Below are positions 6,925-59,499 of a stretch of 64,000 nt of DNA, one piece after another. This stretch comes from a virus. The position numbers and the translations under genes were made by a program. How positions within the stretch are numbered: position 1 is the first letter of the stretch; each line of letters starts with the position of its first letter. Location: IMG/VR virus record IMGVR_UViG_3300005529_000001, positions 80,882-144,881 of that record; one strand, written 5' to 3'. The notes beneath the pieces were generated by a model. That model had not been told where the DNA came from, made no database searches, and saw only the letters and a program-made list of their open reading frames with translations.

Positions 6925-7178
6925 GTGCCCGTCTCCCTGAGGTACCAGGCATAGCTCCAGCCGAGCTCGGACCGGGGCGACAGCAACAGGGCTCTCGTGT
7001 CGTCGTTTGGGTCTGTCTCGGGCACCGTCGCGATGACCAGGGCGACCTCTCCCTCCATCAGCCTCCCGCACCTGTGGAACTGAGCAGTGTCCATCGACCG
7101 GTACAACGGGATTGTCAGGATGGGCTCGTTGTTGTGGCCCCCGTCGGGCCTGATCGTCACCAGGTCACCCGGCTTCAT
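6921..7178 (-). CDS. family A small protein (MKPGDLVTIRPDG...VALVIATV...ELGW)
   Basis: trimmed to internal ATG 7178 at the conserved MKPGDLV N-terminus. Confidence 0.6.
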   Translation of the reverse strand: MKPGDLVTIRPDGGHNNEPILTIPLYRSMDTAQFHRCGRLMEGEVALVIATVPETDPNDDTRALLLSPRSELGWSYAWYLRETGT

Positions 7179-7410
7179 CGAAGAGCCCCTCCCTCTGCCA
7201 ACCGAAGGTCGTCCCCACCAGGACCAGCAGCTGCTGCCCAAGCTCGTGGGGGATGTCCGCGGTGGCCAGCACGATCCCGAGGCTGCTGCTGTTGAGCCAT
7301 AGCACCGACCGGCCCGCGCTCGAGCCGATCCGGTTGTCCCACAGGGGTGCGGTGCCTCCGTCCACGTCGGCGCGCCACTTGGCCAGTCTGACCAGGGTCC
7401 CGGGCTTCAT
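7165..7410 (-). CDS. family A small protein (MKPGTLV...FGW)
   Basis: ORF track plus motifs. Confidence 0.55.
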   Translation of the reverse strand: MKPGTLVRLAKWRADVDGGTAPLWDNRIGSSAGRSVLWLNSSSLGIVLATADIPHELGQQLLVLVGTTFGWQREGLFDEAG

Positions 7411-7646
7411 GGGTTGCTGTCACCCGTCGAGACGGTGATCGTCTTTGTGAATGATTCGTAGATCCAGCCGAGCTCCGCCTTCGAGTTCAGGACTAACAAC
7501 ATGTTTGCTCCAACGCCGTCAACGGCAATGACAAGGGCAATGCCATCAGGTGTCAGCTCGCCGCAGTGTTGCCAGGGTGCATGGTTGGTCCTGAAGATGA
7601 GTCGCTTTTGCAGGTCGAACGTAGTGATCAGGTCTCCGGGTCTCAT
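7407..7646 (-). CDS. family A small protein (MRPGDLI...IALVIAV...ELGW)
   Basis: ORF track plus motifs; ATGA coupling. Confidence 0.6.
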   Translation of the reverse strand: MRPGDLITTFDLQKRLIFRTNHAPWQHCGELTPDGIALVIAVDGVGANMLLVLNSKAELGWIYESFTKTITVSTGDSNP

Positions 7647-7876
7647 GTGTCAAACCCGTCGATGAAGGAGATGTAGATCCATCCCAGTTGAGCCCTGTTC
7701 CCAATCACTAGAGCCTTGATCTTGTCCGATGCCACGACCAACGCAACCTCCTTGGGACCCAGCTCACCGCACCTGTTGTCACCGCCCCGGAATGCGTCGA
7801 GATCGAGTTGCTTGTACAACCCACGGGTCACGTTGAAGGAGACAGTGACCAGGTCTCCGGGCATGATCGGTCTCAC
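7643..7876 (-). CDS. family A small protein (MPGDLVTV...VALVVAS...QLGW)
   Basis: ORF track plus motifs; ATGA coupling. Confidence 0.6.
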   Translation of the reverse strand: MRPIMPGDLVTVSFNVTRGLYKQLDLDAFRGGDNRCGELGPKEVALVVASDKIKALVIGNRAQLGWIYISFIDGFDT

Positions 7877-8154
7877 TTGCGGTCTCCCGCTCGGTTCTTG
7901 AGCGTCCTGTTCAGCAGCCAGTCATCCTCGCCGACAGTGACGACGAACCCAGCATAGCACCAGCCCAGCTCACCACGTTCCGTCAGGACCAGCACTGTCA
8001 CGTTCGGCCTGAAAGACGCGATGACCATGCCCAGCTCGCCCGGTTCCAGTGACCCGCATGATGCTGAGAAGCCGGTGTCCCGGTACAGGAACCTGGGCCC
8101 TCTTGGATGGTCACTCGTCACCAGGTCGCCCGGCCGGGAGAACCTCCATTCCAC
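7873..8154 (-). CDS. family A small protein (RPGDLV...GMVIAS...ELGW), probable GTG start
   Basis: family domain within ORF 7873..8289; the N-terminal 45 aa of the track ORF are junk-like and overlap gene 8181..8477; in-frame GTG at 8154. Confidence 0.5.
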   Translation of the reverse strand: MEWRFSRPGDLVTSDHPRGPRFLYRDTGFSASCGSLEPGELGMVIASFRPNVTVLVLTERGELGWCYAGFVVTVGEDDWLLNRTLKNRAGDRK

Positions 8155-8180: not shown

Positions 8181-8477
8181 TCACGGTGTCCCTCGCGCGC
8201 ACGCGTGTGGCGACAGCTGTCGCACGTTCATGCAAAAAGTGATGTTGATCCAACCCAGCTCCATCCTGCCGTTTAGCAGCAACAACCACCGTGAATCACC
8301 GACCGTGGCGACGTTGTCAACGGCGTTAGCGATGGAAATGAGCAGGGCAACATCGTCTTTGTCCAAAGAACCGCAACTGCCGCTCCCGAAACTGGCATCA
8401 TTGTAGATGAGGTTGTGCGTGAACAGCCCGCTGTTGACGATGAGGTCGCCGGGCAGCATCGCGTCTTTTATCATCAC
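8181..8477 (-). CDS. family A small protein (LPGDLIV...VALLISI...ELGW)
   Basis: ORF track plus motifs; ATGA coupling. Confidence 0.6.
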   Translation of the reverse strand: MMIKDAMLPGDLIVNSGLFTHNLIYNDASFGSGSCGSLDKDDVALLISIANAVDNVATVGDSRWLLLLNGRMELGWINITFCMNVRQLSPHACARGTP

Positions 8478-8749
8478 ACATCACCCAGCAATTTGGTGAC
8501 GAACCTGGCGACGATCCATCCGAGCTGGGTCCGGTTGTTCAGCAACAGGAACCAGTTTTCTCGTCCGACTGCATCCCCGTCAGCTTGACCGAGACACTGG
8601 ACCTCGTCAGCAGCGACGAGGAGAGCTATGTCACCAACCTTCATCTCTCCACACACGTTGTTGGAGAACTGGATCGCCGTCCTGTATAGGCACCTAATAA
8701 CCAGGGTTGGGTCAAGCTCGACGAGGTCGCCTGGGACGGGACGGTTCAT
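8474..8749 (-). CDS. family A small protein (MNRPVPGDLVEL...IALLVAA...QLGW)
   Basis: trimmed to ATG 8749, which forms ATGA with the upstream stop at 8746. Confidence 0.55.
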   Translation of the reverse strand: MNRPVPGDLVELDPTLVIRCLYRTAIQFSNNVCGEMKVGDIALLVAADEVQCLGQADGDAVGRENWFLLLNNRTQLGWIVARFVTKLLGDV

Positions 8750-9036
8750 CTCTTCCCCCGTGCACGCCTCTTGAGTCGTCGGGTGAACCCAGCATAGACC
8801 CAACCCAGTTCCATCCGCGGTGTCAGCAGCAGCTGGTCCAGCCCATTGGCGGACGTAGCGATGAGCAGGCCCACCTCGTTTGGCCACAGGGTCCCACACC
8901 TGTCACCAGCATATTCTCCCCTGGGTTCTTTGAACAGCCACCTGTCGGTGGTGTCATCGACAGTCTGGATGAGCTCTCCGGGGGCGGGGAAACCGTTCAC
9001 CATGACGCGTGTCTCAGGAAGCCGCCAAAGATCCAA
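8746..9036 (-). CDS. family A small protein (PAPGELI...VGLLIAT...ELGW); alternative start ATG 9003
   Basis: ORF track plus motifs. Confidence 0.55.
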   Translation of the reverse strand: MDLWRLPETRVMVNGFPAPGELIQTVDDTTDRWLFKEPRGEYAGDRCGTLWPNEVGLLIATSANGLDQLLLTPRMELGWVYAGFTRRLKRRARGKR

Positions 9037-41752: not shown

Positions 41753-42532
41753 TCAGTCAAACCGCAGGCCACGCCTGTAAGCAGCTCCGCCGCCATCAAC
41801 CACGAGGCTCTTGGCGTTTCCTGGTGATGGGTTATGGGGCGTGAAGGGAGGCTGCTTGTCTGGGCTGGGATACGGGCTGTCTTTCTTGAACTCCTGCCTC
41901 AGGCGTTCGAGAGTTTCAGCATCGAGCGGCGAGTGGATGTTGACGGTCTTGTTCTCGTCCTGGGTCCACCCCAACACTTTCAGCAGCACATCAACTGCTT
42001 TGATCCCATTCGCTTGGGCAAACTGTAAGATCGTCATGTGTTCCGAGGGTTCAAGCACCGGGCGTGAACCGTCAAGGATGACATCATCGTCAGCGGGACC
42101 GAGCGGCGCCAGCGAGGGAGGTGGGCCCGGTCTTTCTGGGACAGGGACCGCTGCATCAAGCTGTGGGATCGGGTCAGTGGGCTCTCGCTTCTTCACCCAT
42201 GCTTTGGGCGCAGCTTTTTCCTTGCGCGGTCGGGTGACATCGGGCTTCGGGATCGTCGTGATGGCCCGGGGCATCTCACCCAACCTCGTCAGCAGGTGAT
42301 TGGCCTCCATGAGCCAAGCGTCCTTGGCGATGCTCTTCTTCAGGTACTGGAGCTGGTTGGTTGCAACGGCGCTGTTCGGAGAAGCGTTGATGATGCCGTG
42401 CTCGGGATGTAATGTCAGGACGAGCCCGACATGCTTCTTCAGCTCAGCAACGTGCTTCTTCGCCCAACGGTTGACCCAGTGGTTGTCCAGGACATCAGTA
42501 ACCTTGTTCTTTTTCGATTTCTTTGCCATCAC
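41753..42532 (-). CDS. protein with IF2_N-like domain (HMTILQFAQANGIKAVDVLLKVLGW) and basic N-terminus (259 aa)
   Basis: ORF track; the motif resembles the N-terminal domain of translation initiation factor IF-2. Confidence 0.45.
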   Translation of the reverse strand: MMAKKSKKNKVTDVLDNHWVNRWAKKHVAELKKHVGLVLTLHPEHGIINASPNSAVATNQLQYLKKSIAKDAWLMEANHLLTRLGEMPRAITTIPKPDVTRPRKEKAAPKAWVKKREPTDPIPQLDAAVPVPERPGPPPSLAPLGPADDDVILDGSRPVLEPSEHMTILQFAQANGIKAVDVLLKVLGWTQDENKTVNIHSPLDAETLERLRQEFKKDSPYPSPDKQPPFTPHNPSPGNAKSLVVDGGGAAYRRGLRFD

Positions 42533-44304: not shown

Positions 44305-45078
44305 ATGAGTCGTCTGATTGTCATTGGTGATTTGCACGGGTGTCTGGCAGAAGCAGAGGAGCTGCTCCAGAAGTGTGACGCCCGTCCCGAGGACCACGTC
44401 CTCTTTTTGGGTGACCTCGTTGACCGTGGGCCCGACAGCGCTGGTTGCGTTGACCTCGCCATGCGCATCGAAGCGCGGCAAAACAAGCGTGCATGCATCC
44501 TCGGCAATCACGAAGAAAAACACCTTTTCTATGACGACATCGAGCTACGCAAGGGCCACGTGCGTGTTGATGTCGAGACACATATCGAGACCCGCAAGCA
44601 GCTGAAGCGTCACCATTACGACTACTTCAGGGCGATCCCGAAGTTCTTGCGTTTCCCAGAACACAACCTCGTCGCGGTCCATGCTGGTGTCTACCCTGGT
44701 CGCCCGATCGAGAAACAGACCGATAGGCACCTGCTCCACATCCAGAGCATCAGGCCGCCCGAGGAGAAATCGATGTGGCCCAGCCGCATCCCACCCAACG
44801 AGACGGACTGGCGGTTCTGGCACCGCTACTGGGACGGGCCCGAACGCATCATCTTCGGTCACAGCGTCCTCAACAAGCCGCTGGTCACCGACAAGGTCAT
44901 CGGCATCGATGGCGGCGCTTGTTTCGGCTTGGAGCTGTGGGCGTACGTTTTCCCTGATAATCAGCTCGTCAGCGTCAAGGGCCGTGGCTCACACGATCAC
45001 AAGGACCTTGACAGGCGCGGCAACTCAAACAAGAAGCTCTACATCATTGATGAGGACCACGGCGTGGGCACGTACTGA
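44305..45078 (+). CDS. Ser/Thr protein phosphatase (PPP/calcineurin-like metallophosphoesterase, lambda-PPase-like)
   Basis: IVIGDLHGC, GDLVDRGPDS and LGNHE motifs in order, followed by the later His motifs. Confidence 0.7.
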   Translation: MSRLIVIGDLHGCLAEAEELLQKCDARPEDHVLFLGDLVDRGPDSAGCVDLAMRIEARQNKRACILGNHEEKHLFYDDIELRKGHVRVDVETHIETRKQLKRHHYDYFRAIPKFLRFPEHNLVAVHAGVYPGRPIEKQTDRHLLHIQSIRPPEEKSMWPSRIPPNETDWRFWHRYWDGPERIIFGHSVLNKPLVTDKVIGIDGGACFGLELWAYVFPDNQLVSVKGRGSHDHKDLDRRGNSNKKLYIIDEDHGVGTY

Positions 45079-45465: not shown

Positions 45466-45888
45466 TCAGGTGCCCTCACGGCTGGTGTCGATGTTCTTTG
45501 ACATCCACTCGTTCTCACGCTGCCAGGCATCCTTTGCGTTCTGGATGTCTTCTTCGTCTGCCATTCCGACGAAGTCCTCAGCCTTCCACACGTCGAAGCG
45601 ACGTTGGCTTGAGTGACCACCAAAACCGACGCTGATTGTCACATAGGGTTCCTGGTCCTTGTTATGAACGACGGTGAATTCCTTGATCTCACCAGCATGG
45701 GGCTTGCCTCGTCCTGAACCGCGAAACCGTTCAGCGGGAGCAACCATGACCCAATCGCCCACCTTCAGCCCGTCATGCTCTGAGAGCTTCTCGTAGTGAG
45801 GCAGGCCCCGAGCGAAAGCTGCTTGCTTTGGATCTGTCGGAGCTGCTTCGCGAAGAGCGAGCCGGATCTTGCCTAATGTCGTTTTCAT
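45466..45888 (-). CDS. hypothetical protein (140 aa)
   Basis: ORF track; leaderless start behind promoter 45895..45923. Confidence 0.5.
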   Translation of the reverse strand: MKTTLGKIRLALREAAPTDPKQAAFARGLPHYEKLSEHDGLKVGDWVMVAPAERFRGSGRGKPHAGEIKEFTVVHNKDQEPYVTISVGFGGHSSQRRFDVWKAEDFVGMADEEDIQNAKDAWQRENEWMSKNIDTSREGT

Positions 45889-45894
45889 GTGTCC

Positions 45895-45923
45895 ATCCTA
45901 CCACGAATCAATGTTTTTGTGAA
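45895..45923 (-). promoter_or_regulatory. sigma70-like promoter (TTCACA-17bp-TAGGAT), leaderless start at 45888
   Basis: TTCACA AAAACATTGATTCGTGG TAGGAT GGACAC ATG on minus strand. Confidence 0.45.
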
Positions 45924-46127: not shown

Positions 46128-46307
46128 TCAGTAGGGCATGCACTGTGGTCGGGTGTCAACACCCGGGAAGCGGCAGACGTAACCGGAAGGACAATCAGCC
46201 GGGCTGCTGCACGCCTTCGCACCAGGTGCCAGGGGCTTGACGTTCGTGGTCGAGAAACATGCCGTTAGGATGACTGCGGTCACCAACGCGGTGAGGAATT
46301 TCTTCAT
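46128..46307 (-). CDS. small Cys-rich putative lipoprotein (59 aa; MKKFLTALVTAVILTAC lipobox)
   Basis: below the ORF-track size cut-off; ATG 46307 overlaps the upstream stop as ATGA; signal peptide plus LTAC lipobox; 6 further Cys. Confidence 0.35.
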   Translation of the reverse strand: MKKFLTALVTAVILTACFSTTNVKPLAPGAKACSSPADCPSGYVCRFPGVDTRPQCMPY

Positions 46308-46477
46308 GTCGAGTAACTATCGACCTCATGGTCTCGGTGGAGAAACCAAAAGACCGCACAGAACATCGAGATGAGGACTATGGCACCGGGGACGTTTTGT
46401 TGTCCGATCAGGCCATGACAGCACATGCCGACAACAACGGCGATGACCCACAACGAGTAGGCTGCGGTTTTTGCCAT
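46304..46477 (-). CDS. small membrane protein (57 aa, 2 TM)
   Basis: below the ORF-track size cut-off; hydrophobic LWVIAVVVGMCC and IVLISMFCAVFWFL. Confidence 0.3.
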   Translation of the reverse strand: MAKTAAYSLWVIAVVVGMCCHGLIGQQNVPGAIVLISMFCAVFWFLHRDHEVDSYST

Positions 46478-46513
46478 GATCGTACATTATCAAGCACGAT
46501 CACATCGTTTCAC

Positions 46514-46783
46514 TCAGCGACGCCAGGTGACTCGACCCTTGGTCAAATCGTAGGGAGAGACTTCGATGGTGACATTGTCACCGGGTAACAGACGGATGCG
46601 ATTGATCCGCAGCTTGCCCGACAACGTGCACACGACCGTGTTGCCCGCCTCACACTTCACCCTGAAGAGCGTTCCCGGTAGGGCTTCCTCAACCCGTCCT
46701 TGAAGTTCCAGTCGGTCCTGCCGTTCCTCCGGCTCGGTCTGAAACTCTTGCTCCTGCCTGCCCCTTCTCTTGTTCTTGCTCAT
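46514..46783 (-). CDS. infA: translation initiation factor IF-1 homolog (S1-like OB fold) with a 25-aa basic N-terminal extension
   Basis: LELQGRVEEALPGTLFRVKCEAGNTVVCTLSGKLRINRIRLLPGDNVTIEVSPYDLTKGRVTWRR aligns along its whole length with bacterial IF-1; GAGGA RBS 5 nt before ATG 46783. Confidence 0.65.
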   Translation of the reverse strand: MSKNKRRGRQEQEFQTEPEERQDRLELQGRVEEALPGTLFRVKCEAGNTVVCTLSGKLRINRIRLLPGDNVTIEVSPYDLTKGRVTWRR

Positions 46784-46983
46784 TGTCCTCGTCTTCGTTG
46801 TCAGCCGGACCACCAAGGCCCGGTGGTGGGCTCATCAAGCTGTTGCTACGTTCAAGGCTGGAGCCACCGCTCCCGCCCCCGTCCATGAAAAAACCAGCGC
46901 TGTACCTGAGGTCATCATCAACGCCAAACTCCAACAGCTGGCGGATCTTTGCTCGTAGCTCGTGCAACCTGATTCTCATCCAT

Positions 46984-47382
46984 TTACGTATCTTGTTCGG
47001 ACAGCTTCTGGGTCTCATGACCAAAGAACAACAATGACCGTGAGTGTTCAAGGGCCCAACCCACGCCTATCTCACATGATCGCATCGTCGCGTAACATTT
47101 GATCGTTCGCCCGTGGTTTTCAGGGGCGACAAGAGCGTAGAAATCAATGCACTCGCTCGATTGCGTTTCAACATTGATTTCTCGAAGATCGCCGACACCT
47201 GTGATGAAAACGATGTCACCGTTCGGGTGCCGCCCCGCCGCCACCACAATCCTCGCCCTGTCTGGATCAACACGCACCAGTTCCAATTCTTTCGTGGGCA
47301 ACAGCTTCATGTAAGCGGGCACTTCAACGGTGACTGGCCCCTTGACGTGAATGTCAGAGTTGGGTGCGATCGTCAACTCCAT
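46984..47382 (-). CDS. hypothetical protein (132 aa)
   Basis: ORF track. Confidence 0.45.
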   Translation of the reverse strand: MELTIAPNSDIHVKGPVTVEVPAYMKLLPTKELELVRVDPDRARIVVAAGRHPNGDIVFITGVGDLREINVETQSSECIDFYALVAPENHGRTIKCYATMRSCEIGVGWALEHSRSLLFFGHETQKLSEQDT

Positions 47383-47434
47383 TTCAGAACAAGGTACAAC
47401 GTCTGGGGATAAGGTACATGCCTAGGTACCTACA

Positions 47435-48542
47435 GATGCTCCCGTATGACTATCTGATCGTAGGTGCAGGTCTGTTCGGATCGACTTTCGCGTGGCACGC
47501 TAGACAACGTGGCAAGCGTGTCTTGGTCATAGACAAACGAAACCACGTGGGCGGGAACTGCTACACCCACCAGGTTGAAGGGATCCACGTCCATGCTTAT
47601 GGCCCGCACATCTTCCACACGAGCGATCAACAGGTCTGGTCATTCGTCAACAGGTTCGCTAGCTTTCACAAGTACGTGCACCGGGTCAAGGCTCGGCACG
47701 GTGACAAGCTGCTATCTTTGCCCGTCAACCTGATGACGTTCAACAAGCTATGGGACGTAAAGACGCCAGAAGAAGCCGAGGCAAGGCTCCAACAAGCCAG
47801 GACAGTTTGCCCGCATCCCAAGAACATGGAAGAGTGGGCCCTGTCGCAGGTCGGACCCGAGATCTACGAATTGCTCTTCAAACACTACACCACCAAACAA
47901 TGGGGCCGAGACCCAAACCAGATGCCCGCCGCTGTGTTGAAGCGTCTGCCGATCAGGCTCACCTGGGATGACAACTACTATGATGACAAGTGGCAAGGGA
48001 TCCCAACTGGCGGCTACACCCGGATATTTGACGGGCTGTTAGAGGGCTGCGATGTCCGTCTGGGAATCGACTATCTGGCACACCGTGAAGAGCTTGACAA
48101 GCTAGCACGGGTTGTGGTGTACACAGGCCAAGTAGATGCGTATTACGATTACGCGTTGGGCAGGTTAGAATACCGCACGCTTGACTTTGAAACAAAGGTA
48201 ATCCCCCACAGCAACTACCAAGGTTGCGCACAGCTGAACTGGACGGGCCCAGAAGTTCCCTGGACTCGGACAATCGAACACAAGCATTTCGAACTCACCG
48301 ATGTGCCTGCTACCGTTGTCACGTGGGAGACACCTGCAGCGTACAAACCGGGTGATGAGCCCTACTACCCGATCAACGATACTAGGAACAACGATCTCTA
48401 CATGAGGTATAAAGACCTAGCCGATCACGAACCCGGGGTCTTGTTTGGCGGACGGCTGGGAACCTATCGCTATTTTGACATGCACCAGGTGATTGCACAA
48501 GCAATGCACCTGGCGAAACAAGAAGGGTTGATTGATGTCTGA
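47435..48542 (+). CDS. glf: UDP-galactopyranose mutase
   Basis: near-colinear match to Glf: YDYLIVGAGLFGSTFAW, KRNHVGGNCYT, IHVHAYGPHIFHT, RTIEHKHFE, GDEPYYPIND and FGGRLGTYRYFDMHQVI; start set at ATG 47435 rather than track GTG 47364. Confidence 0.8.
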
Positions 48543-49236
48543 CGTTCTTGCTTCTTTCTTGCTGCCATCTCGTGGACGAATCGATCGTTTGGTCCAGAGC
48601 ATGCAATCAGTTCACCGTCGCAACGGCAACGTCTCACGTTGGGGTGAGATTCCCAACTATGAGTTCCTGATCCGTGCCGATGACGATGATGTCGCAACAG
48701 TCAACGTGCTTAAGAAGCACTACGTTGGTGATCCGTACACTCGGGTCACGTTTGGTCCACGTGGACGTGGTTACCTGGACCTGCACTTGATGGTCAACGA
48801 GCTCGCCGCGCAAGCACGGGGTGAGTTCTTGGTCCTCTGGAACGACGATGCATTCATGGTCACTCCAGACTGGGATGACGTGCTGTTAAAGCACCTCAAT
48901 GATCCACCCCTGATTTACCATCCGACTTCTGCGGGCACCACTCGTAACATCTTTCCGATCGTCCGCCGTAGCATCTACCAAGCCATGGGCCGGTTTAGCG
49001 AGAGCGCCCTTAACGATTTTTACGTCTGGACGCTTGCAAAAAGGCTTGGTATCAACACGCAGATCAACATTGATGTCCGCCATGACCATCCGCAAGTTGG
49101 TGGGACAACGATCGATCAGACGTACGTCGATGCAATGAAAGCGTGCACCGTTGTCAAAAATGACGACAAAGACCCACGGATCTTAGCGTGCTTGGACGAA
49201 GACGAAGCAAAGATCCGAGCGCTTCTCAGTAAGTGA
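48532..49236 (+). CDS. probable glycosyltransferase (GT2-like: LLPSRGR...DDDD)
   Basis: N-terminal LPS/T-R-G-R-style motif and acidic DxD-like motif at GT2-typical spacing; weaker than glf. Confidence 0.45.
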   Translation: MMSDVLASFLLPSRGRIDRLVQSMQSVHRRNGNVSRWGEIPNYEFLIRADDDDVATVNVLKKHYVGDPYTRVTFGPRGRGYLDLHLMVNELAAQARGEFLVLWNDDAFMVTPDWDDVLLKHLNDPPLIYHPTSAGTTRNIFPIVRRSIYQAMGRFSESALNDFYVWTLAKRLGINTQINIDVRHDHPQVGGTTIDQTYVDAMKACTVVKNDDKDPRILACLDEDEAKIRALLSK

Positions 49237-50005
49237 GAAGTTGTCGCCAGTGTTCAGGCATGAGCTGAACCTCGCCCACCGCATATGGATCCCCGAATTG
49301 GTTTGACTGTTTATCGATATTAGCGAACACATCAATAACAGACTGACGATCAGCGATGTTTAACCGGGCTGAATGACGACGGAAATACTCGTCAACATCG
49401 AGACACCAACCGTGAAGTAACGACAGTGTTGGGTCAATTGGCTCATTGACTTGTTTGATACCATTCAAGTAAAAGTTATGGAAGCCCCTCTGGTACGTCA
49501 TTGGCACTTTTGTCACCAGTGTCTTGTCATACATGGGTAGCCTCCACATCGACCGTCTGTCAACAAGGAGTTGAGCGCCTGGCGTCCGTGACAGCATCGC
49601 TTCACCCGGTTGTTGTACCACATTCCACCCAACTGCACGTCTCCACTGGTCTTTTGACTTCAGGAAACGCTCACAATAGTCTCGCAAGTTAACGTACTTG
49701 GCATTGGGGATCAGGAACTCGTCGGTCTCGGCAAAGACAACGACGGGGTAGCGTTGGAGCAACTCACGTTGCATTTGCTCAACAACCTGTTTCAAAAACA
49801 GACTGACGTGAGTTCCACGTGACGGCACACACACAAAATTGACCCGAGGGTGAAGCAATCGTGCTTCTTCCACGCTCCCATCATCAGTTGAGTTATCGAT
49901 CACATAGACGTCTTCAGGCGGAAAATTGCTGGTGTAGTAATTCAGCCACGTCCGGAGAAACAACGGCTCGTTTCGTGTGATGGTAAAAGCAGCGAAGTCT
50001 CCCAT
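49226..50005 (-). CDS. glycosyltransferase family 2-like protein
   Basis: AAFTITRNEPLFLRTWL...VYVIDNSTDDGS matches the GT2 N-terminal signature (IIPTYNE...IIVVDDGSTD). Confidence 0.55.
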   Translation of the reverse strand: MGDFAAFTITRNEPLFLRTWLNYYTSNFPPEDVYVIDNSTDDGSVEEARLLHPRVNFVCVPSRGTHVSLFLKQVVEQMQRELLQRYPVVVFAETDEFLIPNAKYVNLRDYCERFLKSKDQWRRAVGWNVVQQPGEAMLSRTPGAQLLVDRRSMWRLPMYDKTLVTKVPMTYQRGFHNFYLNGIKQVNEPIDPTLSLLHGWCLDVDEYFRRHSARLNIADRQSVIDVFANIDKQSNQFGDPYAVGEVQLMPEHWRQLLTY

Positions 50006-50042
50006 GTGTAGATTCTACTCTTCCATGATTTAAAGTGTTGCT

Positions 50043-50387
50043 ATGTGGACTGACCGCCCCCGGATGTGGACTGATGGGCTTGTCATGGCGACCCTAGTGG
50101 GTCTCCTCCTGATCATGATAGTTAGCATCGGGTTTGAAACTAGTTCAGTTCCCATTTCAATCCCACAGTGCCAGGAAGTCGTCGTGACAATTCACCAAGG
50201 TGAGGAAACACTGGCAACATGCCCCGCAGGGACATGGCTGGATATCATGGATGACAATGTCGTTTGCAGGTGCTCTCCCCAAGACCGTCACCAGCCCGTA
50301 CCCAAGTTCATCACCCCTCCCTCGACCACACAAATACCGAAGGCAACTCCCCCGCAAAGAGACGACAAGGGCGGGATCGAGATCTGA
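50043..50387 (+). CDS. membrane-anchored Cys-containing protein (114 aa)
   Basis: ORF track; TM helix LVMATLVGLLLIMIVSIGF. Confidence 0.4.
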   Translation: MWTDRPRMWTDGLVMATLVGLLLIMIVSIGFETSSVPISIPQCQEVVVTIHQGEETLATCPAGTWLDIMDDNVVCRCSPQDRHQPVPKFITPPSTTQIPKATPPQRDDKGGIEI

Positions 50388-52610: not shown

Positions 52611-53055
52611 TATCGTACGTATCTGGCCCCTTCGCTGGGTGAGCCGCCGCTAGTTCCCTAGCGACTGCAACGGCTTGTGATTCCATCACCCTGACATCTT
52701 GTGCGGCTTGGAAGGCCTTCCAGTAGAGCCATGAGGCTCTCAGCCCCTGGGTCACTGCGACCAAACCAAGGGCAAACCAGGGGCTGCGGTGAGCAACGAG
52801 ACAAGCCAGTGTCAGCGCAACCATGCTGATGACTGAGCCTGCCGCTGTCCCCCACGCGATCCGACGCTCCCGGTGAGCGTGGGCCGTGTCACGGTAGAAC
52901 GACAACGCTAGGCCGAAGCCCACCGCTTCATCCTCAGAGACCTGGTTCCAGTCGACCCTTGAGACCTCATCAGTCATCAGGGCATCGATCTGGATGTCGA
53001 CGGCTGGGATCTTGACCTCACTGCTCACTTGCATGCTCCTTGCTGGGCTCATCAA
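52582..53055 (-). CDS. membrane protein (157 aa, 2 TM)
   Basis: ORF track; hydrophobic AAGSVISMVALTLACLVA and WFALGLVAVTQGL. Confidence 0.45.
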   Translation of the reverse strand: MMSPARSMQVSSEVKIPAVDIQIDALMTDEVSRVDWNQVSEDEAVGFGLALSFYRDTAHAHRERRIAWGTAAGSVISMVALTLACLVAHRSPWFALGLVAVTQGLRASWLYWKAFQAAQDVRVMESQAVAVARELAAAHPAKGPDTYDSGSPFPEAG

Positions 53056-54667
53056 AGATGACAGCGTCCAGCGACAGGAACGTCGTTGCCACGCTGGCGG
53101 CGTGCTTCAAAGCTGACCGGGTCACCTTCACGGGATCGATCACGCCCGCCTTGACGAGGTCCTCGTACTCTCCTGTCGCTGCGTTGTAGCCCAGCTCGTC
53201 ACCCGCCGCGAGCTCGTGCTTCTTGTGTTCGAGCTCAGTGAGAATGACGCCGGGAGTTGCACCTGAGTTGCTGACGATCTTGTGCAGCGGGCCGAGGCAG
53301 GCCCGGAAGACCGCGTTGGCTGCCTGGACCTCTTCGGGGTCAACACCCTCAGCCTTGCCAACCTGGCCCTTGACGGCATTGACAGTGTTGAACAGGGCCA
53401 TGCCGCCGCCGGGGACGATCCCCTCTTCCGCGGCCGCTTTGGTCGCATTGAGAGCGTCTTCGATCCTGAACTTCCGCTCTTGCATCTCGATCTCGGTCGC
53501 GCCGCCGACGCGGATCACCGCGACTCCGTTGGCAAGCTTCGCTGCTCTGACACGAAGCTTCGTCAGCTCGTCTTGGGACAACGAGATGTCAGCCATCTGC
53601 GTCCGGATCTCTTCGACCCGAGCCTTGACAGCGTCCTTGGTCTTGCCGGGTCCCACCAACGTTGTCACCTTGGCGTCGGACACCACCTTTGACAGGCTGC
53701 CCAGATATTTGCTCTCGAACTTGTCAAGCGATGCACCCGTTGCGCTGGAGATCAGCGTGGCCCCCGTCAACACGCAGATGTCTGCTAACAGGTCCTGACG
53801 GTGCTGGCCGTAACCGGGAGCCTTGACGCAAACAACCGGGAGCTTGTTCTGGACACGGTTGATGACGAGACCCGTCATCGCGTCTCCCTCGAAATCCTCC
53901 GCAATGAGGAGCAGAGGAGACCGGACTTTCATGACCAGCTCTAGGATTGGCATGATGTCCTTGAAGCTTGAGATCTTCTTGTCGGTGATGAGGACCGTCG
54001 CGTTCTCATAGACCGCACGCATCCTCTCGGGATCGGTAACGAAGTACGGAGACACGTACCCGCGGTCAAGCTGCATGCCCTCGACCACCTCCATCGTTGT
54101 CTGCATGCCCTTGGCATCTTCGACAGTGATGACACCGTCACGTCCGACCTGTGCCATCGCATCAGCGATCTGCCTGCCGATGGTCTTGTCACCGTTAGCG
54201 CTGATGGTCCCGACCTGAGCGATCTCGTCGTCAGTCGTCACGGGCTTGGCGTGAGCTCTCAACCCCTCCAAGATCAGGTCAACGGTAGCATTGATGCCTC
54301 GGCAAACCGCCAATGGCGATGCGCCAGCCTCGACAAGCTTCATCCCTTCCTTGACAAGGGCTTGTGTCAGGACGCTCGCTGTCGTCGTCCCATCACCAGC
54401 CACGTCGTTGGTCTGGCTTGCAGCTTCCCTGACAAGGTCAGCGCCCATCCGAGCGACGGGATCGCTGAGCTTGATCGATTTCGATACCGTCACCCCATCC
54501 TTCGTGACAAGGGGTGCCATGCCCTGGCGCTGGATGAGGACCGTCTTGCCCCTGGGGCCCAGGGTGCAGCCGATTGCGTCAGCGGCCTTGTTGAGGCCCT
54601 CCATCAGCTTTTTACGAGCTTCGCTACTGAAGATGATCTGCGTTGTTGATTCGCCGGGTAGGTTCAT
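53018..54667 (-). CDS. groEL: chaperonin GroEL (Cpn60), divergent; no GroES gene nearby
   Basis: canonical blocks AAD..LGPRGKTV, DGVTV, VAGDGTTTA, GGG..L and equatorial/apical/intermediate order over 549 aa; lacks the C-terminal GGM tail. Confidence 0.85.
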   Translation of the reverse strand: MNLPGESTTQIIFSSEARKKLMEGLNKAADAIGCTLGPRGKTVLIQRQGMAPLVTKDGVTVSKSIKLSDPVARMGADLVREAASQTNDVAGDGTTTASVLTQALVKEGMKLVEAGASPLAVCRGINATVDLILEGLRAHAKPVTTDDEIAQVGTISANGDKTIGRQIADAMAQVGRDGVITVEDAKGMQTTMEVVEGMQLDRGYVSPYFVTDPERMRAVYENATVLITDKKISSFKDIMPILELVMKVRSPLLLIAEDFEGDAMTGLVINRVQNKLPVVCVKAPGYGQHRQDLLADICVLTGATLISSATGASLDKFESKYLGSLSKVVSDAKVTTLVGPGKTKDAVKARVEEIRTQMADISLSQDELTKLRVRAAKLANGVAVIRVGGATEIEMQERKFRIEDALNATKAAAEEGIVPGGGMALFNTVNAVKGQVGKAEGVDPEEVQAANAVFRACLGPLHKIVSNSGATPGVILTELEHKKHELAAGDELGYNAATGEYEDLVKAGVIDPVKVTRSALKHAASVATTFLSLDAVIFDEPSKEHASEQ

Positions 54668-54673
54668 GCCCAG

Positions 54674-54702
54674 ATTCTATACCTGGGCAGATCACCTGTT
54701 CA
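54674..54702 (-). promoter_or_regulatory. sigma70-like promoter for groEL (TGAACA-17bp-TAGAAT), leaderless
   Basis: TGAACA GGTGATCTGCCCAGGTA TAGAAT CTGGGC ATG on minus strand; a TTGACA also lies 6 nt further upstream. Confidence 0.5.
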
Positions 54703-55466: not shown

Positions 55467-57023
55467 CTACTCGTCTGCATCCTCGTCGTCCGGGTCTAAA
55501 GGGTCACAATCATCCTCACCCCCACCTTGCATGGCAACGATAGCATCTTTTAGCTGGTCCGGCGTGATCTCATTAACTTCACCAACATCTCCAAGACTAA
55601 CTGGTTCGCTTGACGTCGTCTTAGCTACTGTTGCAGGTCTAGTCGCTATCGCAGCTTTCACGACGGAGATCATCCGTTGTATGCCGTCATCATCTTCATC
55701 GCGGTATTTCTCGAGCTTCTTGACCCGCGTTGCTAGCTCCCTGACGCTATCTGCGGCATCTTCTTTGTTCAGGTACGTACGCCTGACAACATACTCGTTG
55801 ACAAACGCGATGGGCCAGTCCTTGACCAGGTCAAAGCCATCAGCGTAATCCCCAAGCACGTGCTGGACGACTTCTTCATCCATCTTGTCAATCAAAACCA
55901 GCTCATCGATGCGTCCAGGACGGAGCAAAGCATCATCGAGCTTTTTCTTGTTGTTGACAGTGACGATGACCAGCTTCACCTTTTCTTGGAAGTACTCGAG
56001 CGTCTCGAGCAGCTGCGCTTGGTGATGTGTCCGATCAAAATCATCCAAGATGACAGCGTCAGGTTGGAAGATATTGAGGGCCTCGAACAGGGTCGAGTTG
56101 TCGAGCTGGCCCAGGTCTGCGATGCGGATCCGGAACGACCTCAGCCCCATCAGTTCTACGATCGTGCGGGCAAGCGTGGACTTGCCGGTCCCGGGCGGGC
56201 CGTAAAACATCACGCTCCTGGGCACCCCCGCCGCGAGAGGTTTCTTCAGGTACGTTGCGTAATCAACAGCACGCTTGGATTGCTTGGACTCGAACGCGTC
56301 ATCTTCTTCAAAGACGACACGTGCTTCGTTGTCCTTCAAAACGAGCCGGTTGTTCTTCCGCATCACCAAGCTCTTCCCCTCGAACTGTTCCCACAACAGC
56401 TTCTTGATGAAAGTCTTTGCTTCATCTACCCGTTCGGTCTCGACGTAGATGCTGTCAACCAGATGCAGCCGGCCCGTGTATTGCCAACCGATCTTGATGC
56501 CATTGGGCAATGCCAACAACCTAATGAACGTGTTTTCTTCTGACGTCTTGATCTTCTCGTATGGGAACTTCTGGAGCACGTGGAGCAATGTCTGGGTGAA
56601 GTCCTGGCTGTAGGGCTCGGTCCACTCATCACCAGCGAAGTAATCTTCATTGTACGTCTCAACGTCTTCGACCATCAGCTTGCCCATGCTGAACGTGGCC
56701 TTACCTGCCGTCCACCATGATGGCTTGTCAAGGAATGGCGTTGCGGCCTCAAACAGCTGGGTTCCCAACGCAAACGCTCGCTTGACCTTGTGCATGCTGA
56801 GGAAACGCCTGACCTCTTCGACCAGGGGCATCTCTTTCACTACCTTGAGCAGGTCTTCTTCTTCGTTTGGCATCAAACCACCGCTGTTTTTCGTTTCGCT
56901 GGGCGTAGCATACTTTTCGTTTTCAAGCTTGTCTTTCATTCGTTCGATTAACCGATCAGCTTCAATTTCAGCCTCAGCCTGATCGAGCAACTCCTTTCGA
57001 AACTTCTCCCAGTCAGTTCCCAT
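55467..57023 (-). CDS. AAA+ ATPase (classic AAA clade) with N-terminal coiled-coil region (518 aa)
   Basis: Walker A GPPGTGKST, Walker B VILDDFD, second region of homology with Arg finger ALLRPGRID. Confidence 0.75.
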   Translation of the reverse strand: MGTDWEKFRKELLDQAEAEIEADRLIERMKDKLENEKYATPSETKNSGGLMPNEEEDLLKVVKEMPLVEEVRRFLSMHKVKRAFALGTQLFEAATPFLDKPSWWTAGKATFSMGKLMVEDVETYNEDYFAGDEWTEPYSQDFTQTLLHVLQKFPYEKIKTSEENTFIRLLALPNGIKIGWQYTGRLHLVDSIYVETERVDEAKTFIKKLLWEQFEGKSLVMRKNNRLVLKDNEARVVFEEDDAFESKQSKRAVDYATYLKKPLAAGVPRSVMFYGPPGTGKSTLARTIVELMGLRSFRIRIADLGQLDNSTLFEALNIFQPDAVILDDFDRTHHQAQLLETLEYFQEKVKLVIVTVNNKKKLDDALLRPGRIDELVLIDKMDEEVVQHVLGDYADGFDLVKDWPIAFVNEYVVRRTYLNKEDAADSVRELATRVKKLEKYRDEDDDGIQRMISVVKAAIATRPATVAKTTSSEPVSLGDVGEVNEITPDQLKDAIVAMQGGGEDDCDPLDPDDEDADE

Positions 57024-57214
57024 GTTGGCCCTCGGTTAGTCTCCGTTTCGGTGCGTGAGTAGCCACGGTCACCGTGATGATAGCGTCAGGTCCCACGAGC
57101 TCGAAGCCACGACGAATCGCGTCAACGACCCGCTGGATCGTGACCCGAGCATCAGCACCGCCGACCTTTAGGGTCAGGGTGCTGACGGCATCATACTGTT
57201 CGACGTGCGGCGCC

Positions 57215-57988
57215 TCACTCATTGGTTCCAAGCAAACGACCAGCAAGCGTCAGACTGGTTTGCTGACAAGCAGGTCCTTCCTTGTACCAGTACTCCGCAA
57301 CCCCTTGATTGGACACGGTGATGAGGGAGGAGCTGACGGTGCCAAAGCTGTGTTCGTCAGCATGGACGCAAATAGCCTGGAACGGATCGTCTTTTGCTTG
57401 CCTGTGCGAGAAGTGAGAGGCGAGCGTGATGCACAGGCGCGTGCAGACCGTCTGGATGTCACCCACATATGGGTCCATCGTCAGGCTCCATGCCATTCGC
57501 TTTGTCCACTCTGTCTTCTCAGCGTACCGGTCTCCCCAGCAGTCATTGCTGATGACATTGAAGCCCGTTGGCATGGGCTGCATCTCGACGGATTGACCTT
57601 CTAACACTCGCGTCAGGAACATCGCACCCGGCCTGCCAAAGACCAAGTTGAATGGGTTAAACCACTTTGGGTTAAGCTCTGACAGGATCCTCGCGGCTGC
57701 GGTGTGGTTTCCACACTCCAATAGCTGGCGAACCACCTGGCCTCGCGACAGCTTATTGTCGTCATGGTGACCATCATCCTGGTTGGTGATGCCAACGAAC
57801 CACCCGCCATCCCCCACCCCGATCCACGTGCCTCCCCTGACCTCATCAATCGGTGCGATGTAGTTGCGACCCGGGATCGTCAGCAGTTGGGGTGCTAACG
57901 ATCTCCTTCCGTACAGCTCGTCACGGTTGGCCGCGACGATCAGCGGGTAACCAGGAACAACTTCGTCAAGGACGATGAGCGTACACAT
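57215..57988 (-). CDS. NRDE-family (TANGO2-like, DUF833) protein
   Basis: N-terminal MCTLIVL (Cys2 nucleophile context) and the eponymous ANRDE motif, VGxxxxW and downstream blocks in family order. Confidence 0.65.
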   Translation of the reverse strand: MCTLIVLDEVVPGYPLIVAANRDELYGRRSLAPQLLTIPGRNYIAPIDEVRGGTWIGVGDGGWFVGITNQDDGHHDDNKLSRGQVVRQLLECGNHTAAARILSELNPKWFNPFNLVFGRPGAMFLTRVLEGQSVEMQPMPTGFNVISNDCWGDRYAEKTEWTKRMAWSLTMDPYVGDIQTVCTRLCITLASHFSHRQAKDDPFQAICVHADEHSFGTVSSSLITVSNQGVAEYWYKEGPACQQTSLTLAGRLLGTNE

Positions 57989-57991
57989 GGC

Positions 57992-58549
57992 TCAGTCTTC
58001 GTCGTCACTGTTATCATCACTCTCGTGGAGATCGTCGGCGGTGAAGACGGGGGCCTCGGCGGTGGGCTTCAGCACGATTTCACACCAAGTCAGCGTGCCC
58101 TCATTGATGAAGAAGTGAGCAGTCTGAAGCACAATGTCCTCGCCATCATTGTTGTCATCACCGAAGGTGATGCTGCACTCGGCAGTGCCCTGAAGGCATG
58201 GGACGACCTTCTCGATAAAGATCGGAAAGAAGGTGTTCGCCGCGATCGCATCGTAATCGTCATCTGACCAATCGATGGTGTTGAGCTCGAGGCGAGTCGC
58301 GGCTTTCTTCCCGAGCTTGGAACCGCACTCACGGCAAAACTTAGCGTTGCCGTAGCTCTGGGTGCCGCAGTGACACTTGATCTTTTCCTTCGTGTTCTGG
58401 TCAGCCTCGTCTTCCAGGTCCGCGAGGAAGCAGTTCTGGGGGAGCTCGTGAGAGTACTTCTTGAGCAAGCGTTTCACATCGTTCGGGTCGATGGTGAGGT
58501 TAGCTTGTTCGGGGTTTAACCAGGTGACGTTATCGATCCTTGTGGTCAT
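57992..58549 (-). CDS. Zn-ribbon protein (CHCG...KFCRECGSKL), paralog of 26120..26584
   Basis: shares the CxCGxxxxxxxKFCxECGSKLxK ribbon, the preceding PxxCFLxxL block and acidic flanks with the plus-strand gene at 26 kb. Confidence 0.5.
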   Translation of the reverse strand: MTTRIDNVTWLNPEQANLTIDPNDVKRLLKKYSHELPQNCFLADLEDEADQNTKEKIKCHCGTQSYGNAKFCRECGSKLGKKAATRLELNTIDWSDDDYDAIAANTFFPIFIEKVVPCLQGTAECSITFGDDNNDGEDIVLQTAHFFINEGTLTWCEIVLKPTAEAPVFTADDLHESDDNSDDED

Positions 58550-59499
58550 GTCGGTGTCTCCTTGCGGACGTCATAAGCGTTCATCAGTCGTTTGCCAAGG
58601 TCACGCAAGAACGCGGGACCGTACCTCAGGTTTCCTGTCGCTTCGAGGTCACGTTCCAAGAACTCGGGCAGGACCTCATCTTGGTGACGAGCGGACGCGA
58701 TTCCCCAAGCGATTGATGCAACGCTGTCAGTGTCACCTCCCCAATCGATGACCTGGCGCATGATCCCCATCAGGCTGTCCTGCGTTGTCAGGAGGGTGTG
58801 GACCGCCCAAGCAGTGTTCATGCCCACATCATAGGGAGAAGCCTTCACATTGCCAGCGACTGGGCCCACCCAAGGCTCACGGAAACGCTCGAAGACTGGC
58901 AGCTGGGTTACCAACCAGCTCGACAAGCTGGTGAAGTCTCGACGGTCATAGAGGGCATAGTGAGACATCAAGGCGACAGCAACAGCTGATGTCACGCCCT
59001 CGTACGTTGCATGTGTGGTGCCGGCTTGACGCATCGCCATTGTTTTGACCCACTCAGGGTCTGGGATGACCCCGAGGGGCACGCTTCGCATTGCCGCGCC
59101 GTTTTTAGTCGAGTCAGGCTTGAGCGTCAACCGGAGCTCATCACTCGTTTCCACCGACTCAAGGATCGCCTGGAACTTGCGGCTGTACCCGTCACGAGGG
59201 TCACGTTTGAACGCGTAAAACCATGCTTCGACAAAGTCTTCGTGTTTCGCGGTCCGACCTTTGGTGAGCAGGAGCTCCGCCAGAGCGGCTGACATCTGGG
59301 TGTCATCAGTGTACATGCCCGGTCGTAGCTTGGTGTGGGTCGGGTGCTGCAGGTACCGTTCGAATTTACGTGCTTCAACATACAGCTCGGGCTTCTCTTT
59401 CTCCTTGACGTACTCGACGCAAGCAGCGTATGCATCTGCTTGCGCGATCCGGAGCAGCATGTTGTCGTTACGGTACCTCACTTGCCCTCTCGATGCCAT
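58546..59499 (-). CDS. ADP-ribosylglycohydrolase (ARH/DraG family)
   Basis: N-terminal AQADAYAA and YTDDTQMSAALAE (DD/T metal-site block) plus C-terminal DWGGDTDSVASIAWGI (GGDTDT block). Confidence 0.7.
   Translation of the reverse strand: MASRGQVRYRNDNMLLRIAQADAYAACVEYVKEKEKPELYVEARKFERYLQHPTHTKLRPGMYTDDTQMSAALAELLLTKGRTAKHEDFVEAWFYAFKRDPRDGYSRKFQAILESVETSDELRLTLKPDSTKNGAAMRSVPLGVIPDPEWVKTMAMRQAGTTHATYEGVTSAVAVALMSHYALYDRRDFTSLSSWLVTQLPVFERFREPWVGPVAGNVKASPYDVGMNTAWAVHTLLTTQDSLMGIMRQVIDWGGDTDSVASIAWGIASARHQDEVLPEFLERDLEATGNLRYGPAFLRDLGKRLMNAYDVRKETPT

Follow-up and report, generated by a model that had tools for sequence, protein, structure and literature searches.

The 64,000-nucleotide stretch of viral DNA described here (positions 80,882 to 144,881 of IMG/VR record IMGVR_UViG_3300005529_000001; hereafter "the window", numbered from its first nucleotide) carries on its minus strand a gene coding for translation initiation factor IF-1. 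Its open reading frame (ORF) extends from an ATG at 46783 to a TGA at 46514-46516 and encodes a product of 89 aa, MSKNKRRGRQEQEFQTEPEERQDRLELQGRVEEALPGTLFRVKCEAGNTVVCTLSGKLRINRIRLLPGDNVTIEVSPYDLTKGRVTWRR. The gene is preceded on the same strand by an unannotated ORF of 96 codons, whose last 95 nt overlap the IF-1 start in a different frame, and by a conserved gene coding for 132 aa. The GTGAAA -35 element of the promoter of a 57-aa hydrophobic protein gene abuts the IF-1 stop codon on the downstream side. The features of the locus and of the surrounding window are listed in Table 1.

The gene product was defined by profile and structure comparisons. The original prediction, made from the sequence alone, had proposed an IF-1 homolog with an S1-like OB fold, and the searches agree with it. 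Residues 26-88 are matched by Pfam PF01176 (eIF-1a/IF-1) with 81.3 bits against a cutoff of 30.2 (E 3.8e-23), while residues 21-88 align with positions 1-68 of the 69 positions of the NCBIfam infA equivalog TIGR00008 with 87.7 bits, well beyond its curated cutoff of 61.15. Comparison with both the IF-1 and the eIF-1A profiles, proposed at that time as a check, separates the two families clearly: the eIF1A/aIF1A models score far below their thresholds (TIGR00523, 22.9 versus 102.9 bits; NF0030xx models, 15-25 bits versus cutoffs of 91-202), which rules out membership in that family. A match to a generic S1 or cold-shock domain had been named as the outcome that would speak against IF-1. Neither S1 (PF00575) nor CSD (PF00313) is found in the product by Pfam at E<=1, and such a reading is ruled out. 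The other Pfam matches at this threshold, RsgA_N, the proteasomal ATPase OB domain and TOBE_2, are all weak and below cutoff. Searches of the Protein Data Bank (PDB) return solved bacterial IF-1 chains with E values of 3e-24 to 1e-17, residues 21-88 or 21-89 of the query being always aligned to the whole chain. The best sequence match (E 3e-24) pairs residues 21-89 with residues 6-74 of 6c00_A, and identity to the solved bacterial IF-1s is 45-58% over 67-69 residues.

The AlphaFold2 model, computed from an alignment of 62 family members, has a predicted local distance difference test score (pLDDT) above 90 over residues 25-88 and displays the IF-1 OB topology. Strands are found at residues 25-34, 39-44, 49-54, 70-75 and 82-88, with a helix at 56-60 between strands 3 and 4. 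The polypeptide stops directly past the last OB strand and does not have the carboxyl-terminal helical domain of eIF1A. When the model is compared to the PDB with Foldseek, the top 14 hits are all bacterial IF-1, followed with lower scores by aIF1A/eIF1A. The best one is 30S-bound E. coli IF1 (9fco_I), with a root-mean-square deviation (rmsd) of 0.8 Å over 67 residues and a TM score of 0.92. Set against a size of about 70-75 aa without an extra domain, the full 89-aa protein does not fit but the core alone does. The product is a bona fide bacterial-type IF-1 and not a generic OB, S1 or CSD domain, because Pfam, NCBIfam, the PDB chains, the AlphaFold2 model and Foldseek all favor IF-1 over an S1 or cold-shock assignment.

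The OB core is strongly conserved. Residues P36, F40, G56, R59, I63, D69, P77, Y78, D79, G83, R84 and R88 are invariant in the 62 sequences of the family, and the equivalents of E. coli K39, R41, N43, R46, D51, P59, Y60, D61, G65, R66 and R70 either do not vary or reach at least 90% conservation among them. In the register given by the alignments to solved IF-1 chains, phage K57, R59, R64, Y78, R84 and R88, all in this invariant or at least 90% conserved class, correspond to E. coli K39, R41, R46, Y60, R66 and R70. The basic and aromatic positions common to all IF-1s are retained, and among the conserved positions are the basic residues turned toward 16S rRNA in the 30S-IF1 structure. Across 11 loci, the proportion of nonsynonymous differences (pN) in the core is 0.09-0.27 and that of synonymous differences (pS) 0.45-0.88, the latter saturating, and the median ratio of nonsynonymous to synonymous divergence (dN/dS) over 23 locus pairs is 0.16. 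Purifying selection has acted on the core as synonymous sites became saturated.

The start of the gene required correction. The public gene call (P0001) begins IF-1 at a TTG at 46816 and yields a protein of 100 aa. The ATG at 46783 is preferred because nearly all homologues start with M-[SAK]-K-[KN].. at the position of this codon, because the in-frame stretch 5' of it lacks conservation at the protein level, and because a Shine-Dalgarno (SD)-like GAGGA lies 2 nt before it. Related loci have a purine-rich sequence of the AGGA or GGAG type at the position of this GAGGA. No in-frame ATG, GTG or TTG is found within the gene between codon 1 and codon 42, and the amino terminus ahead of the core must therefore be translated. 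Note that the region also has a public call for an 86-aa protein on the opposite strand (46328-46588, plus), which is probably spurious.

The amino-terminal tail (residues 1-20) was seen in the original prediction as a basic extension of 25 aa. The extension is present but it has about 20 aa and is basic and then acidic, with five K/R in residues 3-9 and five E in residues 11-20, so that it is roughly neutral overall. Its pLDDT of about 49 indicates disorder. An extension of at least 10 aa is found in 85 of 102 related clusters, with a median length of 17, and its bipartite composition is shared: the medians are 4 K/R and 0 D/E for the first ten residues, and 0 K/R and 3 D/E for the remainder. 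In an ungapped BLASTP alignment of IF-1 residues 2-88 to residues 9-94 of human eIF1A (a sequence verified against the PDB), KNKRRGR of the phage tail faces KNRRRGK of eIF1A, with an E value of 2e-4 for this single comparison. A PDB search with IF-1 residues 1-45 returns bacterial IF-1 only and no eIF1A. The likeness of the tail to eIF1A is low-complexity and compositional, is not significant alone, and may serve as an analogy only. The eIF1A amino-terminal tail contacts the codon-anticodon region of the P site.

The overlapping ORF upstream starts at an ATG at 46979, ends with a TGA at 46689 and would encode MRIRLHELRAKIRQLLEFGVDDDLRYSAGFFMDGGGSGGSSLERSNSLMSPPPGLGGPADNEDEDNEQEQEKGQAGARVSDRAGGTAGPTGTSRTG. 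The protein features an amino-terminal helix followed by SAGFF, PPPGLG, an acidic run and QAGARVxDRAGG. The acidic run, ..EDEDNEQEQEKG.., is the alternative-frame reading of the IF-1 basic patch, and the GAGGA that precedes the IF-1 ATG is contained in it. A hidden Markov model built from ten copies finds the ORF directly 5' of IF-1 in every one of the loci L001-L017. Nine clusters of the family, all unannotated, are present in the protein database. The 96-aa product has no match among Pfam, NCBIfam and PHROG families, and its AlphaFold2 model shows a helix at residues 5-19 with low confidence elsewhere. The reading frames of the small ORF and of IF-1 were compared in 11 loci. The part of the ORF outside the overlap has a pN/pS of 0.37-0.66 in its own frame versus about 0.9-1.8 in the two other frames; the ORF therefore evolves as a protein. 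Conservation of the region as an RNA hairpin is ruled out by this frame-specific substitution pattern and by the folding energy upstream of IF-1, which is not unusual (z = -0.59). The 200-bp "gap" left before IF-1 in the annotation is, on its sequence, coding. Overlapping genes of this kind are lost in automatic annotation, and the present ORF is mostly missed by current gene callers.

Two relatives show the overlap undone. In L007 (5678-6252) and L008, the small ORF stops 14 nt before the IF-1 ATG. The L007 arrangement was apparently reached through duplication of the shared segment: the upstream ORF retains the acidic run and the QPGARVYDRAGG motif, and IF-1 retains the KKRR patch. Since both are kept in the absence of an overlap, they are independently selected, and the tail as a by-product of the ORF overlap is ruled out. 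A frameshift fusion of the upstream ORF with IF-1 is likewise ruled out, IF-1 having its own ATG and GAGGA and the L007 ORF ending 14 nt short of it. In some locus pairs the synonymous divergence is lower in the overlapping part of IF-1 than in its core (for instance 0.40 versus 0.74), which fits a dual-coding constraint. Homologues of the 132-aa gene are found immediately upstream of the small ORF in L002, L007, L009, L011, L012 and L017, which makes the conserved unit a module of three genes. The 132-aa product has no Pfam, NCBIfam or PHROG match and no annotated homologue.

Table 1. Features of the IF-1 module and of other regions of the window discussed in the text (positions in the window).
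Feature	Positions	Strand	Characteristics and basis
Vault-like protein, 1050 aa	29403-32555	plus	Major-vault-protein shoulder and repeat domains; N-terminal Cys-rich motif
SPFH/Band-7 protein, 638 aa	32638-34554	plus	Follows the vault-like gene
Type-I methionine aminopeptidase with 45-aa C-terminal Cys4 tail	36875-37741	plus	TIGR00500, Peptidase_M24, sequence
202-aa protein	39828-40436	plus	N-terminal stretch of T4 gp23: Pfam Gp23 (1.6e-6); phrog_138 over residues 75-118
Calcineurin-like phosphoesterase	44305-45078	plus	Beside IF-1 in all relatives
57-aa hydrophobic protein	46304-46477	minus	Downstream of IF-1, own leaderless-type promoter; conserved in L009
Leaderless-type promoter of the 57-aa gene	46475-46513	minus	GTGAAA -35 (46513-46508), TAATGT -10 (46489-46484), 6 nt before ATG 46477
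IF-1 (infA-type) coding sequence	46514-46783	minus	89 aa plus TGA stop 46514-46516; ORF, PF01176, TIGR00008, PDB chains, AlphaFold2, dN/dS
IF-1 OB-fold core, residues 21-89	46517-46723	minus	Collinear with bacterial IF-1; invariant residues; AlphaFold2 strands
Clade-specific IF-1 N-terminal tail, residues 1-20, MSKNKRRGRQEQEFQTEPEE	46724-46783	minus	Basic patch then acidic patch; predicted disordered
SD-like GAGGA	46786-46790	minus	2 nt 5' of the IF-1 ATG, within acidic-tail codons of the upstream ORF
Conserved unannotated ORF, 96 aa plus stop	46689-46979	minus	Other frame; last 95 nt overlap the IF-1 start
Conserved 132-aa gene	46984-47382	minus	Stop 4 nt before the small-ORF ATG; first gene of the module
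GroEL-type chaperonin	53018-54667	minus	TIGR02348, 626.9 bits; syntenic with IF-1 across the phage clade

The window belongs to a metagenomic contig of 369,506 bp (ENA ERZ27279688 k141_1055159) and has about 130 mostly small ORFs with a coding density of 90%. No tRNA and no Rfam family is found in its 64 kb. Megablast of window positions 36000-60000 finds no near-identical DNA in GenBank phages, whose best IF-1 is 57% identical, over the core only. IF-1 relatives with 55-83% identity form about 100 protein clusters, with a common tail of 17-20 aa, and come from contigs of 309-345 kb, and 19 IMG/VR viral loci, on contigs that reach 278-394 kb, carry a relative. The neighborhood remains recognizable at 60-68% IF-1 identity, with an AAA ATPase, GroEL, small ORFs, IF-1, the calcineurin-like phosphoesterase, the gp23-like fragment and the vault-like protein. 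Several proteins of the window, the gp23-like fragment included, match PHROG families. A huge-phage genome of about 370 kb is thus well supported but indirect, as is the description of the gene as phage-encoded, which draws on the relatives in 278-394-kb IMG/VR viral genomes and on genes common with published huge phages. A giant plasmid-like element would be the residual alternative. In the neighbor-joining tree, based on 71 columns, the phage IF-1 clade is nearly recovered (25/26) with a bootstrap of 49/200, and its monophyly has no firm support.

Some of the syntenic genes deserve comment. Phage homologues of the vault-like protein, with 42% identity, are found only in the huge phages LR756500 and LR756501 (462 kb and 735 kb), and the block that it forms with the SPFH gene has a GC content of 62%, above that of its surroundings. 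The short gp23 match of the 202-aa protein is conserved in relatives, and this product, instead of being a capsid protein, may be an internal protein targeted to the capsid. The best sub-threshold matches of the phosphoesterase are ApaH/PrpE-type bis(5'-nucleosyl)-tetraphosphatases, the Pnkp phosphatase and a NinI-like phosphatase; any connection of this enzyme with the chemistry at the 5' ends of leaderless mRNAs is purely speculative. A galactofuranose-type glycan-modification cassette (47364-50005), coding for a UDP-galactopyranose mutase (TIGR00031, 391 bits) and then two family-2 glycosyltransferases, is found immediately upstream of the IF-1 module and is transcribed divergently from it. 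Minus-strand genes at 55467-59499 and 63047-63859 code for an AAA ATPase, a TANGO2-family protein, a zinc-ribbon protein, an ADP-ribosylglycohydrolase and a DNA glycosylase of the Fpg/Nei type. A SET-domain protein and a phosphoribosyltransferase are encoded elsewhere in the window.

The original prediction placed other translation-related genes near IF-1, which is correct for one of them. The type-I methionine aminopeptidase, 9 kb from IF-1, is confirmed by TIGR00500 (276.2 bits versus 171.35, over residues 5-243 of 288) and by Peptidase_M24 (163.9 bits), and its residues 244-288, beyond the end of the profile, have the four-cysteine pattern CHVC...CKQC, in the part that the original prediction had taken for an acquired carboxyl-terminal Zn-ribbon. 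No second translation-linked enzyme is found in the window. The protein encoded at 41753-42532, said to have an IF2_N-like motif, has no match to IF2_N (PF04760) or to any other Pfam family at E<=1, nor to NCBIfam or PHROG families, and was dropped as evidence. Pfam searches of 110 further ORFs of the window found only SET, PRTase, the gp23 fragment, NTPases and zinc ribbons, and no further translation family. The window holds IF-1, methionine aminopeptidase and GroEL; a translation-gene cluster is absent. Relative L005 (60% IF-1 identity) has a peptide deformylase gene (8439-8939) on the downstream side of IF-1, at a distance of 2 kb, and its IF-1 stop is overlapped by a gene for endonuclease VII. 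With methionine aminopeptidase here and peptide deformylase in L005, the amino-terminal processing enzyme found near IF-1 differs between lineages.

A second characteristic of the window is its promoter architecture. The pattern TANNNT-N6-ATG occurs 31 times versus 7.8 ± 3.4 in dinucleotide shuffles, a count that was not attained in any of 100 such randomizations, and TGGTANNNT-N6-ATG is observed 6 times for 0.13 expected. With the count restricted to ATGs at the head of an ORF of 60 aa or more, 25 have the element at spacing 6, and each of the other spacings between 0 and 15 has 0-6. The consensus of these 25 sites has GTGnAA at -36 to -31, an extended -10 element TGGTAnnnT that ends at -7, a C at -1 and then the ATG, with about 18 nt between GTGnAA and TGGTAnnnT. 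The in-frame TAG or TAA of the -10 element provides a stop codon 4 codons upstream of each start. At least 25 promoter-proximal genes have this arrangement in all; examples are found at 693-707, 1192-1209, 2952-2969, 45886-45903, 50003-50017, 50031-50045 and 54665-54679, and the arrangement is shared by the genes of GroEL, of a glycosyltransferase and of the 57-aa protein downstream of IF-1. These features strongly support the prediction of sigma-70-like promoters set so that the transcripts would begin at the A of the ATG. In the GC-rich relatives taken together, spacings 6 and 7 are enriched too. Internal genes often have GGAG-type SDs, and host ribosomes therefore use SDs normally. Note that the first 8 kb of the window (1-8000) have a higher GC content of 63-65%, with about 0.87 at third codon positions, and dense small genes on the minus strand, several of which are preceded by nearly identical promoter-start cassettes (cGTGGTAGACTgGGACCATG).

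The computation shows that the core is a canonical, selectively maintained IF-1 that resides in a conserved module and in a conserved AAA-GroEL-...-IF-1-...-phosphoesterase neighborhood. The account that we consider reasonably probable is that the gene codes for a functional IF-1 orthologue, stably inherited in a lineage of huge phages whose genomes measure about 280-390 kb. The protein would bind the A-site region of the host 30S subunit during infection, as cellular IF1 does, and would supply or replace IF1 activity so that initiation is kept running, or is biased, under shutdown of host gene expression. Translation of IF-1 and of the overlapping upstream ORF is probably coupled via the embedded GAGGA. 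The disordered tail, basic and then acidic, would be the likeliest source of any phage-specific behavior. More speculatively, it might provide extra contacts with mRNA, tRNA or rRNA that aid start-codon-driven initiation on leaderless early mRNAs devoid of an SD.

Several observations weigh against this account. In the literature searched, functional work on a phage IF1 was not found. Genes for capsid, portal or terminase are not found in the 64-kb window (Pfam, 110 further ORFs) or in the 10 kb beyond its start, and the term phage therefore rests on the relatives and on gene content. IF-1 itself has no leaderless-type promoter, the GAGGA and the overlapping upstream ORF being found instead, and no clear peak at spacing 6 is seen in L013-L017, AT-richer relatives in which the tailed IF-1 module is retained; a link between IF-1 and leaderless transcripts is therefore not general. 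Relative to typical bacterial IF-1, the clade has replaced LPNxMF by LPGTLF, AHISGK by CTLSGK and NYIR by NRIR, changes that may affect the interactions of the protein with IF2, IF3 or the ribosome. The cellular IF-1s found in GTDB genomes have 49-63% identity, over residues 21-89 only, the closest being 52-63% identical, and belong to many phyla. The survey of cellular IF-1 comprised 80 loci, dominated by Gemmatimonadaceae, probably owing to the peptide patterns used, and with this spread of phyla and identities it is uninformative for host assignment. The tail is also not a phage-only invention, as a cellular IF-1 from a Myxococcaceae metagenome-assembled genome (MAG; CAYUSB010000024.1, L029 6001-6410), located about 150 nt upstream of an rpsM-like start, has an apparent basic amino-terminal extension, MARKRHARSEPREPK.... 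Tails of IF-1 recur, since both this MAG and Bacteroides phage DAC19 (see below) have extensions. Myxococcus phage Mx1 encodes a homologue, with 39% identity, of one protein of the window; together with the tailed IF-1 of the MAG, this is a host hint that is weak at best.

Among the alternatives, the one that fares best, although we regard it as unlikely, is an IF-1 specialized for leaderless mRNAs, whose eIF1A-like tail would reach the codon-anticodon duplex of the P site and favor SD-less early mRNAs over host messages. This is the strong form of the idea of the original prediction, which had combined IF-1 with leaderless mRNAs; the predicted leaderless signature is indeed present in the window (31 versus 7.8), but the IF-1 gene is itself led by GAGGA. 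The density of TANNNT-N6-ATG sites, the 25 ORFs of at least 60 aa at spacing 6, the GTGnAA ... TGGTAnnnT-N5-C-ATG consensus, the conservation of the tail composition (85/102 clusters) and the KNKRRGR of the phage opposite KNRRRGK of eIF1A (E 2e-4) speak for this alternative. According to a review, IF1 and IF2 stimulate leaderless translation in vitro, IF1 at any concentration, and IF1 strongly stimulates 70S scanning (PMC9031893); this gives the idea a rationale, not a proof. A link of IF-1 to the translation of leaderless mRNAs is plausible. On the other side, the tail match is low-complexity and the search with residues 1-45 finds no eIF1A, the eIF1A models are far below cutoff (22.9 versus 102.9 bits), IF-1 is SD-led, GGAG-type SDs are common in internal genes, and in L013-L017 the module is retained although a clear leaderless signature is missing. 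An extended form, slightly more doubtful still, would make of the three-gene module a device to reprogram initiation: the eIF1A-like tail would stabilize pairing of the start codon and the initiator tRNA on 5'-terminal AUGs, leaderless early mRNAs would be loaded preferentially, and the acidic partner would modulate or chaperone the tail, or compete with host IF1, the phage IF-1 being convergently remodeled toward an SD-independent initiation of eIF1A type.

It is improbable that the protein acts as an inhibitor or decoy that occupies the A site of the 30S subunit and blocks work with host IF2 and IF3, perhaps together with the acidic ORF product, shutting host translation or reserving ribosomes. 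The clade-specific substitutions at otherwise conserved IF-1 positions, the extra tail and the tight genetic coupling to an acidic, disordered 96-aa protein could be read in this way. However, the fold and the rRNA-facing basic residues are conserved exactly as in working IF-1s, a pure blocker would hit phage translation too, and profile searches of the module proteins found no homology to known translation inhibitors. A role outside the ribosome, as a single-strand-RNA-binding OB protein that acts on phage transcripts in the manner of an RNA chaperone or cold-shock factor, has still less in its favor. An RNA chaperone-like role is described for E. coli IF1, the OB fold has a basic surface and a basic tail would raise RNA affinity, but the best matches are specifically IF-1 and above the equivalog cutoff, with no CSD or S1 at E<=1, and conservation is not confined to a generic RNA-binding patch but spans the IF-1 surface as a whole. 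The least probable alternative is that the gene is not viral. It would be the infA of a cell or plasmid, on a contig that was wrongly assembled or classified, or else a passenger recently acquired from a host and without a role in the element. Capsid, portal and terminase are missing from the sequence examined, some relatives are binned into bacterial MAGs, and large plasmids have similar gene sets according to the passages on them in huge-phage papers (PMC7162821), but the cellular infA context beside rpsM seen in L028 and L029 is lacking, synteny extends across contigs from many samples with 19 IMG/VR viral loci among the relatives, identity to any cellular IF-1 found is at most 63%, and the long-term purifying selection in the lineage argues against a recent passenger.

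The proposed functional orthologue, carried by a probable huge phage, can be set beside several known systems. With bacterial IF-1 (InfA; E. coli 9fco chain I, T. thermophilus 1hr0 chain W) the phage protein shares a single OB fold (rmsd 0.8-1.1 Å), 45-58% identity and the G-K-x-R, I-R, PYD and GR..R positions. It differs by the 20-aa tail and by the signatures LPGTLF and CTLSGKLRxNRIRLLPGD, and its gene is found in a probable huge-phage genome, not beside rpsM, and overlaps an upstream ORF. The eIF1A/aIF1A proteins have a homologous OB domain (Foldseek rmsd 1.2-1.5 Å) that binds the same ribosomal site, and the basic KNRRRGK of eIF1A and KNKRRGR of the phage protein are equally far from strand 1. 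Unlike eIF1A, phage IF-1 has neither a carboxyl-terminal helical domain nor an acidic carboxyl-terminal tail, and it stays below the cutoffs of the eIF1A models.

Phage-encoded IF-1 has been known since 2020 and the present gene is another case. Passages of Al-Shayeb et al. (2020; PMC7162821) report genes for IF1 and IF3 in huge phages and a model in which host translation is intercepted or redirected, and they are seen again in soil huge phages in a later paper (PMC11748809). These IF1s are encoded by phages with genomes above 200 kb, as is probably the present one, and are read there as intercepting or redirecting host translation; Lak megaphages and others carry IF-1. The model jumbo phage phiKZ is reported to have no leaderless transcripts (PMC8244752). 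The present lineage differs in being absent from the GenBank phage collection, where the best phage IF-1 has 57% identity, in the core only. The idea that such phages tune initiation is thus a hypothesis already published for huge phages, in the passages cited of PMC7162821, and is here a proposal only. The passages on huge-phage IF1 in PMC7162821 and PMC11748809 do not mention a tail, an overlapping ORF or leaderless promoters. The family-wide bipartite tail, the overlapping partner ORF in a three-gene module and the dense leaderless-type promoters appear to be new.

Cultured phages offer a more distant parallel. Bacteroides phage DAC19 gp4 (MT074139.1, L108 627-932, annotated "hypothetical protein") and its DAC/SJC relatives have an IF-1 homologue with a basic, Q-rich amino-terminal extension, and in DAC19 GroEL is about 1 kb from it if the linear record is treated as circular. 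They differ by an identity of 33-35%, by an extension of about 35 aa that has another sequence, by a genome of about 179 kb and by the Bacteroides host. A homologue of the overlapping ORF was not recognized by eye in the one upstream gene of DAC19 that was translated. Phage bS21 is another small host-type protein related to initiation with a basic amino-terminal extension, as presented in parts of PMC7162821 and of Mizuno et al. (2019; PMC6375957); this extension was proposed, in the first of these, to aid competitive binding to ribosomes. The two proteins and their ribosomal sites are different, bS21 being a ribosome component and IF-1 a transient factor.

The identification of IF-1 is solid, although this central fact will not surprise a specialist, and it gives a good experimental handle. 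The system is a tractable case, with a small conserved protein, a well-predicted core, a family-wide tail that can be deleted, a genetically coupled partner ORF and predicted early transcripts that are mostly leaderless. If the gene merely provides a spare IF1, it would be another copy of a host translation gene carried by huge phages. If the tail or the partner ORF biases initiation toward leaderless or phage mRNAs, this would give the interception of translation proposed for huge phages a concrete mechanism and would inform how the tails of IF1 and eIF1A act in start-site selection.

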